A DNA stretch of 64,000 nucleotides from Eledone cirrhosa (GCA_964016885.1 OZ024747.1:74338001-74402000); one strand, 5' to 3'. Positions 8,479-41,793 are shown, numbered from the stretch's first letter. The notes: generated from the sequence alone by a model not told the origin. A program made the numbers and translations.

Positions 8479-8553
8479 GAAGTTGTTACACAACAGTTAG
8501 TTCACCATACCGAGAACAATTGTTTCACCACCGCGGGCGGATCTTCAGCATAC
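8479..8553 (-). ncRNA. Truncated minimal hammerhead-like motif (PLE type), same family as 22194-22312
   Basis: Minus strand CTGAAGA-tccgcccgcggtggt-GAAA-caattg-TT-ctcggtatgg; palindromic helix III; 5' helix I strand missing. Confidence 0.55.
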
Positions 8554-9059
8554 TTATATATCTACTCACACACATACACACATACACACTCACACATACA
8601 CACATACACACTCACACATACACACATACACACACACGCACATACACACATACATCCTCATATACCTACTCACACACATACACAGACACATATATATAAC
8701 TATTATATGTATATATATCCAGGGAGTGTATATATATATATATATATATATATATATATATATATATATAGGTATATGAGTATGTATGTGTGTATGTGCG
8801 TGTGTGTGTATGTGTGAGTGTGTATGTGTGTATGTGTGTGAGTAGATATATAAGTATGTATGTGTGTATGTGCGTGTGTGTGTGTATGTGTGAGTGTGTA
8901 TGTGTGTATGTGTGTGAGTATGTATGTGTGAGTGTGTGTGTGAGTAGGTACATGAGTATGTATGTGTCCATGCGTAGTCACCAGTGAAACTGTAGTCCCA
9001 CTTTCTTCTCCAACTGACCAGACCAGCTGCTAATGTAGCGAATGGTCTACCCCTACCAT

Positions 9060-10795
9060 CTGGTGGTGGTGGTGGTGGTGGTGGTGGTGGTGGTGGTGGT
9101 GGTGGTGGTGGTGGTGGCGGCGGTGGTGGTGGTGGTGGTGGTGGTGGTGGTGGTGGTGGCGGTGGTGGTGGTGGCGGCGGTGGTGGTGGTGGTGGTGGTG
9201 GTGGTGGTGGTGGTAGTGGTGGTGGTGGTGGTGGTGGTGGTGGTGGTGGTAGTGGTGGTGGTGGTGGTGGTGGTGGTGGTGGTGGCGGTGGTGGTGGTGG
9301 TGGTGGTGGTGGTGGTGGTGGTGGTGGCGGTGGTGGTGGTGGTGGCGGTGGTGGTGGTGGTGGTGGTGGTGGTGGTGGTGGTGGTGGTGGTGGTGGTGGT
9401 GGTGGTGGTGGTGGTGGCGGCGGTGGTGGTGGTGGTGGTGGTGGTGGTGTTGGTGGTGGTGGTAGTGGTGGTGGTGGTGGTGGTGGTGGTGGTAGTGGTG
9501 GTGGTGGTGGTGGTGGTGGTGGTGGTGGTGGTGGCGGTGGTGGTGGTGGTGGTGGTGGTGGTGTTGGTGGTGGTGGTGGTGGTGGTGGTGGTGTTGATGG
9601 TGTTGGTGGTGGTGGTGGTGGTGGTGGTGGTGGTGGTGGCGGCGGTGGTGGTGGTGGTGGTGGTGGTGGTGGTGGCGGCGGTGGTGGTGGTGGTGGTGGT
9701 GGTGGTGGTGGTGGTGGTGGTGGCGGCGGTGGTGGTGGTGGTGGTGGTGGTGGTGGTGGTGGTGGTGGTGGCGGCGGCGGTGGTGGTGGTGGTGGTGGTG
9801 GTGGTGGTGGTGGTGGTAGTGGTGGTGGTGGTGGTGGTGGTGGTGGTGGTAGTGGTGGTGGTGGTGGTGGTGGTGGTGGTGGTGGTGGTGGTGGTGGTGG
9901 CGGTGGTGGTGGTGGTGGTGGTGGTGGTGGTGGTGGTGGTGGTGGTGGTGGTGGTGGTGGTGGTGGTGGTGGTGGTGGTGTTGATGGTGTTGGTGGTGTT
10001 GGTGGTGGTGGTGGTGGTGGTAGTGTTGATGGTGTTGATGGTGTTGGTGGTGTTGATGGTGGTGGTGGTGGTGGTGGTGGTGGTAGTGTTGATGGTGTTG
10101 ATGGTGTTGGTGGTGTTGGTGGTGGTGGTGGTGGTAGTGTTGATGGTGTTGATGGTGGTGGTGGTGTTGGTGGTGGTGGTGGTGGTGGTGGTGGTGGTGG
10201 TGGTGGTGGTGGTGGTGGTAGTGTTGATGGTGTTGATGGTGGTGGTGGTGTTGGTGGTGGTGGTGGTGGTGGTAGTGTTGATGGTGTTGATGGTGGTGGT
10301 GGTGGTGGTGGTGGTGGTGGTGGTGTTGATGGTGGTGGTGGTGGTGGTGGTGGTGGTAGTGTTGATGGTGTTGATGGTGGTGGTGGTGTTGGTGGTGGTG
10401 GTGGTGGTGGTAGTGTTGATGGTGTTGATGGTGGTGGTGGTGGTGGTAGTGTTGATGGTGTTGATGGTGTTGGTGGTGTTAATGGTGGTGGTGGTGGTGG
10501 TGGTGGTGGTAGTGTTGATGGTGTTGATGGTGTTGGTGGTGTTGGTGGTGGTGGTGGTGGTGGTGGTGCTGGTGGTGTTGGTGGTGGTGTTGGTGATGGT
10601 GGTGATGATGATGGTGGTGGTGGTGTTGGTGGTGGTGGTGGTGTTGGTGGTGCTGGTGGTGGTGGTGGTGGTGGTGGTGATGGTGGTGATGGCGATGGCG
10701 ATGGCGGCGGCGGCAGCGGTGGTGGAGGTGATGGTGGTAGTGGTGGTGGTGTTGGTGGTGGGGAGTGGGGGGTGGGGTTAGTGGTGGTGGTGGTG
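9060..10795. repeat. ~1.7-kb (GGT)n microsatellite with GGC/GTT/GAT variants
   Basis: Direct reading; poly-V ORF is an artefact. Confidence 0.95.
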
Positions 10796-12329
10796 GTTCT
10801 ACTGCTGTTACTGCTAATGGTGCTATTACATCTACGCTACTTTTGTTGCAACATCTGCTACCACTGCCACTACCACCACTACTCATTCTGCTGGTGAAAC
10901 ATCTACTGCCCCTACCACTACTACTACAGCTGCTGGTGCAACGATGCTACCACCACTGCCACCACTGCTAGGGAATCTACCTGTGCAACCACCACTTCTA
11001 CTGCTGTTGGTGCTACCACTACCACTACTTCTACTACTGCTGGTGCATCCTCTACTACTACCGCTACTACAGCTGCTGGTGTAACGATGCTACCACTGCC
11101 ACTACCACTACTACTACTACTACTACTACAGCTGCTGGTGTAACGATGCTACCACTGCCACTACCACTACTACTACTACTACTATTACTACTACTACTAC
11201 TACTACTACTGCTACTGCTACTGCTGCTGCTGCTGTTGGTGCTGGTGCAACGTATACTACATCCGCAACTGCTTCTGGTGCATGATATGCTACCACCACT
11301 ATTAGTACTTCAACCTGTGCAACCTCCACGTCTACTGCTGGTGTATTATATACTACCACCACTACTGAGGATGTCACCTCTGCTACCCCACTCTACTACT
11401 ACCGCTACTGCTACTCCAGCGTATACAAACAGCACTTACTGGAGTAAACCTCTACTGCTACCACCGCTACTGCTGCAGTATATACCACTAATACTAGCAC
11501 TGCAACAACTAGTGCAACCTTTACTACTACCACCACCTCTAATACTGCTACAAAATATACCACTACTACTACTACCACCACCTCTAATACTAGTGGAACA
11601 TATACCACTACTACTACTACCACCTCTGATACTACTGCAGCATATACCACTACTGCTACCACTACTACAATTAGCGCAACTTCTGCTACAAACGTAGTTA
11701 TGCCGTGGTGTCATATACTACAACCAATACTACTGCAGGTGCATTCACTACAAATGCTAAGGCTTAGAATTTGACAACTACATCCGCTACTGGTGGTGCA
11801 ATCTACTACTACTACTACTACTACTACTACTACTACTACTACTACTACTAGTGCTGCAGCTGTTGCTGTTTGTGAACCACCACTACTACTGCTGCTACTG
11901 CTACTACTACTGCTGCTACTACTACTACTACTACTGCTGCTGCTGCTGCATCATACGCTACAGCCACTACTACATCTGGTCCAGCCTACACCAGCCCTAA
12001 TACTACTGCTGCTGGTGCACCACTACTACATCTGGTGCAGCCTACTGCAGCACTACTACTACTGCTGGTGCACCATCACTACATCTGATGCAGTCAACAC
12101 CAGTCATACTACTTCTGCTGGTGGTGCACCATCACTACATCTGGTGCAGCCTACACCAGCCCTACTACTACTGCTGGTGGTGCACCATCACTACATCTGG
12201 TGCAGTCTACACCAACACTACTACTACTGCTGGTGGTGCACCATCACTACATCTGGGCAGTCTACTGTAGCAGTAGTATTGCTACTATTGCTGGTGCAAC
12301 ATATGTAGACACCACCACTGCTACAACTA

Positions 12330-40794: not shown

Positions 40795-40878
40795 GGCCCT
40801 TACTGATCAGTTTCGCTTTGTAAAACCCCGGAAATCCGATGGATATCTGATGGAAAACCAAAACTCATCAGAGAAGCA
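40795..40878 (-). ncRNA. Type I hammerhead ribozyme candidate
   Basis: tgcttct-CTGATGA-gttttg...caaagc-GAAA-ctgatcag-TA-agggcc; palindromic helix III, GUA triplet. Confidence 0.7.
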
Positions 40879-41441
40879 TTTTCCTTTCTTAGGGCTAAAA
40901 GACAAAGGAAAGATAAACTATATGACTTCCTGCCAGCTAATACAGGTCTGAAAGGTCGTGAAAGTGACCCGTATGTAAACCGGTCTGCAATAAAAGCGGG
41001 AAACCACAGACTTGCTGTCTATAATTACTACTAAAAAAATAGCAACTAAATAGAACAACAGATTTGTTCTCTACATAACGGAGAATAATGAATGAAGTTA
41101 ATATGTCCAAGGATACTAAGTACCCCTAGAAATACATAGGTTGTCTATGATTCAAGGTTGTTCAATGGTATTAATTTGATATACCAGAACTTTAATATTA
41201 AGATAAGCAGAACAAGTAAAATTCAACCAATTTTTTTAAATAAATTATGTAGAGAACAAATCTGTTCTATTTAGCTGCTATTTTTTTAGTAGTAATTATA
41301 GACAGCAAGTCTGTGGTTTCCCGCTTTTACTTCAGACCGGTTTACATACGGGTCACTTTCACGACCTTTCAGACCTGTATTAGCTGGCAGGAGGTCATAT
41401 ATTTTATCGTTCCTGGGTCTTTTAGCCCTAGGAAAGGAAAA

Positions 41442-41525
41442 TGCTTCTCTGATGAGATTTGGTTTTCCATCAGATATCCATCGGATTTCCGGGGTTTTAT
41501 AAAGCGAAACTGATCAGTAAGGGCG
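41442..41525 (+). ncRNA. Type I hammerhead ribozyme candidate (inverted copy)
   Basis: tgcttct-CTGATGA-gatttg...taaagc-GAAA-ctgatcag-TA-agggcg. Confidence 0.65.
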
Positions 41526-41793
41526 ATTAGAAGAGGTAAATATTTATATTTTATATTATATTTTTTAATTTAATTAAAAAAATTGGTTGAATTTTACTTG
41601 TTCTGCTTATCTTAATATATATTATATATATATATATGTATATATATGTATATATATATATATTATATATATATAATCAGTAGACGATTAAACTATTTAT
41701 ATATATTTATATATGTATATATATATATGTATATATATTATATATATATAATCAGTAGACGATTAAACTATATATATATATTTATATATATAT

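Follow-up and report, generated by a model that had tools for sequence, protein, structure and literature searches.

Hammerhead-bearing units of the window

We analysed a 64,000-nucleotide stretch of the Eledone cirrhosa genome (GCA_964016885.1, OZ024747.1:74338001-74402000), referred to here as the window, in which six units with hammerhead ribozyme motifs lie next to (TA)n tracts. An earlier note on this DNA had taken them for non-autonomous families mobilised by Penelope-like elements (PLEs). The motif cohort is real and non-random, and is explained by known systems: three Hydra, one Neptune/Nematis-type and two retrozyme-type families. Very probably, four of the six units are the 5'-truncated ends of coding PLEs and the other two are closed, retrozyme-type monomers likely copied by PLEs. 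The units are labelled A (18.4-19.5 kb), B (40.6-41.6 kb), C (17.05-17.6 kb), D1 (21.9 kb), D2 (27.2 kb), E (8.5/22.2 kb) and F (27.5-28.2 kb). Clade names are assignments from protein motifs read by eye and set against published clade descriptions. The features are as follows:

8479-8560, minus strand: variant of E forming the 3' end of a Hydra-type PLE, with hammerhead 8548-8515 (CAATTG) and a TA tract at 8455-8478
17050-17608, inverted pair: C, 3' ends of a 6.9-kb Hydra-clade PLE; hammerheads 17391-17257 (minus) and 17406-17538 (plus) with long helix II and CGATCG
18441-19527, minus strand: A, a Neptune/Nematis-type PLE that is 5'-truncated and has an inverted 5' terminal repeat; cores 18753-18726 (minus) and 19282-19309 (plus)
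19018-19254, minus strand: C-terminus (79 amino acids) of the GIY-YIG endonuclease of A, 100% identical to a full-length open reading frame (ORF)
21646-21730, minus strand: G, 3' end of an abundant, TA-abutting repeat; hammerhead-like fold with a fixed U4A; fused to the inverted arm of D1
21731-22066, plus strand: D1, terminal-repeat fragment and inverted 5' arm; hammerhead 21897-21941 with TATATA; 82% identical to D2
22190-22315, plus strand: E, core-substituted copy of the 3' end of a Hydra-type PLE, with its hammerhead (CAATTG) at 22204-22233
27090-27357, minus strand: D2, 3' terminus belonging to a Hydra-clade PLE, with its hammerhead at 27277-27229
27358-27492, plus strand: H, a separate repeat that is fused to D2 on the latter's 5' side and stops at a TA tract
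27512-28211, minus strand: F, closed 555-nt non-coding monomer in 1.26 units, with a candidate U3-A8 core at 27825 and GAAA at 27734
40604-41622: B, closed 484-nt non-coding monomer in 1.3 units (minus), and an inverted arm (plus)
40871-40801 (minus) and 41449-41519 (plus): B hammerheads, helix III CTGATCAG

The hammerhead cores stand where the earlier note had placed them, except that CTGANGA is absent from F on both strands and that the E copy at 22.2 kb carries the substituted core CTGCGGA (the family form, CTGAGGA, was found in 22 of 27 contexts). The best motif in F is the minus-strand U3-A8 core at 27825, in which helix II begins with a G-C pair; this core variant has been described in Schistosoma PLEs (PMC4209133). 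The palindromic helix III that the note had also reported is CAATTG in both copies of E, CGATCG in C, TATATA in D1 and CTGATCAG in B, and takes a wobble form (TATGTA) in D2. It is missing from A, whose two canonical cores have an extra U after A9 and a non-palindromic helix III of only 2 bp.

A chance origin of the motifs is ruled out by 200 local dinucleotide shuffles of the window. A structured descriptor (core, helix II, GAAA, a self-complementary helix III of 6-8 nt, and helix I), which was tuned with units already known and misses those at 18.4-19.5 and 27.5-28.2 kb and the 22.2-kb copy, gave seven matches, every one in a named unit; the shuffles averaged 0.035 and never exceeded 1. The bare, untuned core occurs 13 times, against a mean of 3.6 and a maximum of 9. 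The motif frequency thus exceeds the shuffled background, as the earlier note had expected. Counting against the motif observation, Rfam named no hammerhead family among the 150 matches listed out of 172; those listed were of miRNA type only and driven by microsatellites.

Units that are ends of autonomous PLEs

Units A, C, D2 and E look non-coding in the window because they are 5'-truncated copies; elsewhere in the genome they continue into ORFs for a reverse transcriptase (RT) and an endonuclease (EN). In the window, coding sequence is kept by one copy only, that of A; the earlier note had also counted one such unit.

With a 71-amino-acid remnant of A as query, 150 of 150 scored matches were 97-100% identical, with open frames of up to 1167 amino acids, and in four of four fetched loci a full RT-EN ORF is followed by the same hammerhead. 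The four proteins combine RT and GIY-YIG domains with DKSG, a CX4CxxC linker and a CCHH endonuclease. They therefore have both the CX2-5CxxC linker and the endonuclease CCHH of Neptune/Nematis elements, and by the criteria of PMC8557442 the protein sequence assigns A to the Neptune/Nematis type, either Neptune or Nematis. An Asn-rich insert of ~170 amino acids precedes the RT region in all four fetched copies (ORF at 2843-6232 of locus L013).

Copies of C are 99% identical, and divergent pairs 5-11 kb apart are common. The family forms a 6.9-kb tandem unit with an ORF of 654-727 amino acids between hammerheads, whose protein has DKT and a CxCX5C linker (CNCRNKANC), together with an RWR motif read by eye from the DNA. 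The 3' region of 3.9 kb (3190-7100 of locus L075) holds TA/TG microsatellites and an internal inverted repeat, and the element may carry its own target sequence along.

A third Hydra ORF is linked to D2 in 5 of 24 loci and in all three fetched inverted pairs, with the linker CNCRNKSNC. A 28-mer directly 3' of the predicted cleavage site of the D family has 27,553 exact matches in the genome. D1, 82% identical to D2, is probably an older sister family. Two fusions of TA-targeting families without a TA spacer involve these copies, D1 with G at 21730 and D2 with H at 27357, and possibly arose by template switching in reverse transcription. G itself, which the earlier note had not listed, was seen in 46 distinct contexts within the 0.93 Mb of loci fetched, including L027, L095 and L177.

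For E, pieces of a Hydra-type ORF were found in 6 of 19 loci for the 22.2-kb copy and in 6 of 19 for the 8.5-kb copy. At one locus (L088) the EN end lies ~265 nt upstream of the hammerhead and on its strand, and the sequence shared upstream resembles the end of a Hydra endonuclease; the clade placement of E is by tblastn similarity to C only.

In A, C, D2 and E alike, a single ORF with RT and, at its C-terminus, a GIY-YIG domain (motifs by eye) is linked to the repeat, as in EN-bearing (EN+) PLEs, and the terminal repeat carries a hammerhead and occurs in tandem or inverted, with an optional tail. C, D2 and E fit the Hydra-clade set of DKT, an RWK-like motif, a CxCX5C linker and no CCHH (DKT, RWR and linker read in C, the linker in D2, E by similarity), and inserted into (TA)n in 17/18, 31/33 and 49/55 cases, respectively. 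The 6.9-kb unit of C is not below 3 kb, a size that is typical of Hydra elements without defining them. Judged by these motifs, the coding PLEs are one Neptune/Nematis-type family and three Hydra-type families. In the database the protein of one element was matched best, at 68% identity, by one from Octopus vulgaris, which by itself would make an octopod host probable.

Closed non-coding monomers

B and F occur as single units, tandems and inverted arrays of non-coding, low-GC monomers. The B monomer (484 nt, GC 0.33) has 623 exact motif matches in the genome, and two motifs of the F monomer (555 nt, GC 0.35) have 230 and 426. Sampling in genome order took in 30 of the 623 pattern matches of B and 50 of the 426 of F. 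Among the first 30 for each family, every block comprised 171-1365 nt of monomer-derived sequence and was mostly TA-flanked. Past the monomer start, a head-to-tail junction followed in 9/9 B and 25/33 F contexts; the remaining eight F contexts were F-derived, mostly inverted, or TA. No sampled copy of either family was found to leave the monomer for a shared coding sequence, and neither monomer has similarity to PLE proteins. One B locus has five tandem and two inverted motif matches. A same-strand pair of B copies 2.8 kb apart, considered as a full PLE, proved to be a TA-array duplication.

On these sequence features, B and F fit retrozymes without long terminal repeats (non-LTR retrozymes): both are head-to-tail monomers of a few hundred nucleotides. 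B has a type I hammerhead in each unit, with its core CTGATGA intact in 44 of 48 contexts, and F has a candidate type I hammerhead with a weak helix I and a U3-A8 core that retains A9 in 67 of 88 contexts. No RNA dataset was listed as holding F. The family was found with its head-to-tail joint in two sequencing runs of unknown kind, stored as contigs, which are uninformative on expression since the joint is also present in genomic DNA.

Insertion marks and array structure

The genome of 3.0 Gb is dense in (TA)n tracts. All eight window copies contact such a tract, as the earlier note had described, and outside the window loci 166 of 194 copies (86%) have their 3' end no more than 8 nt from (TA)4 or a longer tract, a count that dropped three F copies not ending within 500 nt and copies near a locus edge. 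Background levels are 9.0% in these loci and 4.9% in the window. Where the query did not include the 3' end (A, D2 and F), the count is 65/73. Together with the ORF linkage, these TA ends bear out the earlier proposal that the hammerheads belong to a PLE system inserting into TA tracts.

In each family, B and F included, the 3' ends form two clusters 40-140 nt apart, matching the two internal RT start sites and tail of an Anolis PLE studied in vitro, of which hammerhead mutants still inserted (PMC11167929). Inversions at the 5' end are frequent in these families. A 5'-end footprint of cleaved templates is unsupported: 5' ends did not accumulate at the predicted cleavage site in any of 30 D loci, and in 20 F loci chosen without a spanning pattern only 1 of 33 contexts began within a few bases of the cleavage site, the others being mostly sequence variants.

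Units of the same array are alike. The median divergence of tandem pairs was 0.32% within arrays versus 1.94% between arrays for B, and 1.11% versus 4.44% for F. Family-level variants within arrays were concordant rather than discordant by 180 to 23 (B) and 228 to 51 (F), counts that take in inverted arms and are inflated by them. Array-private variants common to all overlapping units numbered 20 in B and 22 in F (23 and 24 arrays). This uniformity fits copying round a circular monomer, and equally an internally uniform multimer or local duplication.

Signs of constraint on the ribozyme cores

Position N7 is the free position of the hammerhead core, and A9 and U4 are important for catalysis. 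Across 104 contexts of the D group, gathered with a search pattern that demanded flanking helix arms, position 7 was any of the four bases and the other six core positions were 97-100% fixed. In an alignment of 18 distinct D sequences, 94% of cells are paired and four helix II pairs show two-sided changes; the covariation score was equalled in none of 500 shuffles. The alignment draws on 17 of 30 loci and three earlier copies, leaving out three internal-deletion loci and further, mostly duplicate variants.

Other repeats in the window

Positions 1-2900 are occupied by a long tandem satellite with a 39-bp period and subunits of 9-12 nt. A long interspersed nuclear element, RTE-like by eye, occupies the minus strand at 42812-46311; its endonuclease and RT are spread over three frames, and zinc fingers lie at the C-terminus. 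A further repeat of ~330 nt, present in two copies (17891-18200 and 41785-42120) that are ~86% identical, begins at a TA tract and is possibly a short interspersed nuclear element.

Proposed mechanism and alternative explanations

Given PLE biology, we suggest that the GIY-YIG endonuclease of a PLE nicks a (TA)n tract and that reverse transcription begins at one of two internal sites shortly downstream of the hammerhead. RT would then read through the ribozyme and usually stop early or invert, leaving short, TA-flanked hammerhead fragments. The ORF-less RNAs of B and F may share the recognition signal and borrow the PLE machinery; copied from a circular monomer or an uncut multimer, they would give arrays of up to at least five tandem units. 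Hammerheads with a palindromic helix III would cleave weakly and, in tandem RNA, preferably as dimers. Published activity of motifs with a palindromic helix III is low, and one of nine Xenopus retrozyme dimers cleaved (bioRxiv 10.64898/2026.07.22.740005). Cleavage is probably dispensable for insertion. It is quite possible, if tentative, that B and F are retrozymes and that their copies are the record of target-primed reverse transcription of PLE type, running round a circular monomer RNA. As the genome also has young Hydra and Neptune-type ORFs, both the proposed PLE-retrozyme partnership and the circular template could be tested directly.

Several results weigh against our interpretation. 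A Pfam search of two PLE ORFs (RT-EN) named no family. Unconstrained folding gave a hammerhead shape in none of six segments, yielding alternative structures instead; this outcome is no support for hammerheads, and is no surprise as such motifs are thought to need dimers or proteins. The covariation control takes no account of relatedness among the D sequences, and in a set of five sequences covariation was no higher than in shuffles. In F, helix I is imperfect and the ribozyme weak, and A9U is present in 20 of 88 contexts, tandem copies among them, so that either the F ribozyme is dispensable for spread or the core assignment is wrong. D1 had no RT-EN match in 19 loci and could itself be non-autonomous. 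Finally, blastn of B and F against 15 fetched loci, nearly all of them autonomous PLE copies, gave no sequence link, and their PLE partner is therefore read from the insertion marks only.

That all six units are non-autonomous ribozyme families is now highly improbable. The single window copy with coding sequence and the ORF-less D1 loci speak for it, but A, C, D2 and E continue into RT-EN ORFs, which refutes it for four units. The earlier note's claim of many non-autonomous families accordingly holds for B and F and fails for these four, which are terminal repeats of autonomous PLEs; the note itself had named such an outcome, for every unit and with catalogued PLEs, as refuting its claim.

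For B and F, it is unlikely that they are terminal repeats of rarer, unsampled autonomous PLEs, the closed monomer being a successful deletion derivative. The sampled fraction of their matches and the PLE matches near 4/30 B and 6/30 F loci leave room for this, and Xenopus retrozymes are sister to PLE terminal repeats (bioRxiv 10.64898/2026.07.22.740005); however, the nearby PLE matches lie outside the blocks (two read directly, the rest by coordinates), and no copy exits into a shared coding sequence. Such an origin is in any case compatible with non-autonomous spread today. We consider it less probable still that the arrays arose by local tandem duplication or unequal crossover, with TA adjacency due to the density of TA tracts in this genome or to later TA growth. 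Local duplication also yields like units within an array, but it does not sit well with two fixed 3' ends per family, TA at 86% of ends against 5-9%, arrays of non-integer length, and inverted arms like those of the autonomous PLEs.

Comparison with known systems

Hammerheads in PLE repeats, (TA)n targeting by Hydra elements and a PLE origin of retrozymes are already published. None of the papers listed in a literature search was titled on hammerhead ribozymes in cephalopods, and the main text of an octopus repeat annotation (PMC13282606) uses none of the words hammerhead, ribozyme and retrozyme; octopus Hydra families or hammerheads may appear in the supplementary data of the papers cited. 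What the window corrects is an annotation trap, as TA-flanked hammerhead fragments that seem non-autonomous are usually truncated PLEs.

C, D2 and E resemble the Hydra-clade PLEs of Craig et al. 2021 (PMC8557442) in their C-terminal EN, DKT, CxCX5C linker, lack of a conserved CCHH, terminal-repeat hammerhead and (TA)n insertion. C departs from that description ('generally <3 kb') in its 6.9-kb length with a 3.9-kb TA/TG-rich 3' region, a helix II of ~115 nt and RWR instead of RWK, and the D family in its 27,553 exact 28-mer matches. A shares with Neptune/Nematis EN+ PLEs the DKSG motif, CX4CxxC linker, CCHH endonuclease, tandem or inverted terminal repeats and a microsatellite bias, and differs in its long Asn-rich insert near the N-terminus.

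The minimal hammerheads of PLEs (Cervera and de la Pena 2014, PMC4209133) likewise have an extra base after A9, a small palindromic helix III, the U3-A8 variant and opposite-strand pairs, spaced 100-700 bp, that come from truncated PLEs; the palindromes here are 6-8 nt, and helix II can measure 50-115 nt. The Anolis element Poseidon PAc (Frangieh et al. 2024, PMC11167929) also has an AT-rich target and a tail from two internal RT starts, although the tails here are ~40-140 nt versus 30-40 nt and the clades differ.

Like the non-LTR retrozymes described by Cervera and de la Pena 2020 (PMC7229834) and by Li et al. (bioRxiv 10.64898/2026.07.22.740005), B and F are non-coding, low in GC (33-35%) and arranged head to tail from monomers to multimers, with one type I hammerhead in B and a candidate one in F. 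Their monomers exceed the 150-450 bp of the former and fall inside the 51-972 bp of the latter. Their ribozymes are PLE-like variants, unlike the canonical loop-loop type, and the two families target (TA)n strongly, have two fixed 3' ends and show 5' inversions, none of which was seen in these sources' descriptions of retrozymes. In the published papers PLEs are no more than a strong candidate for mobilising retrozymes, with the mechanism left open. Two young, TA-targeting retrozyme families beside young PLEs offer test material for which protein copies retrozymes and whether the template is circular.

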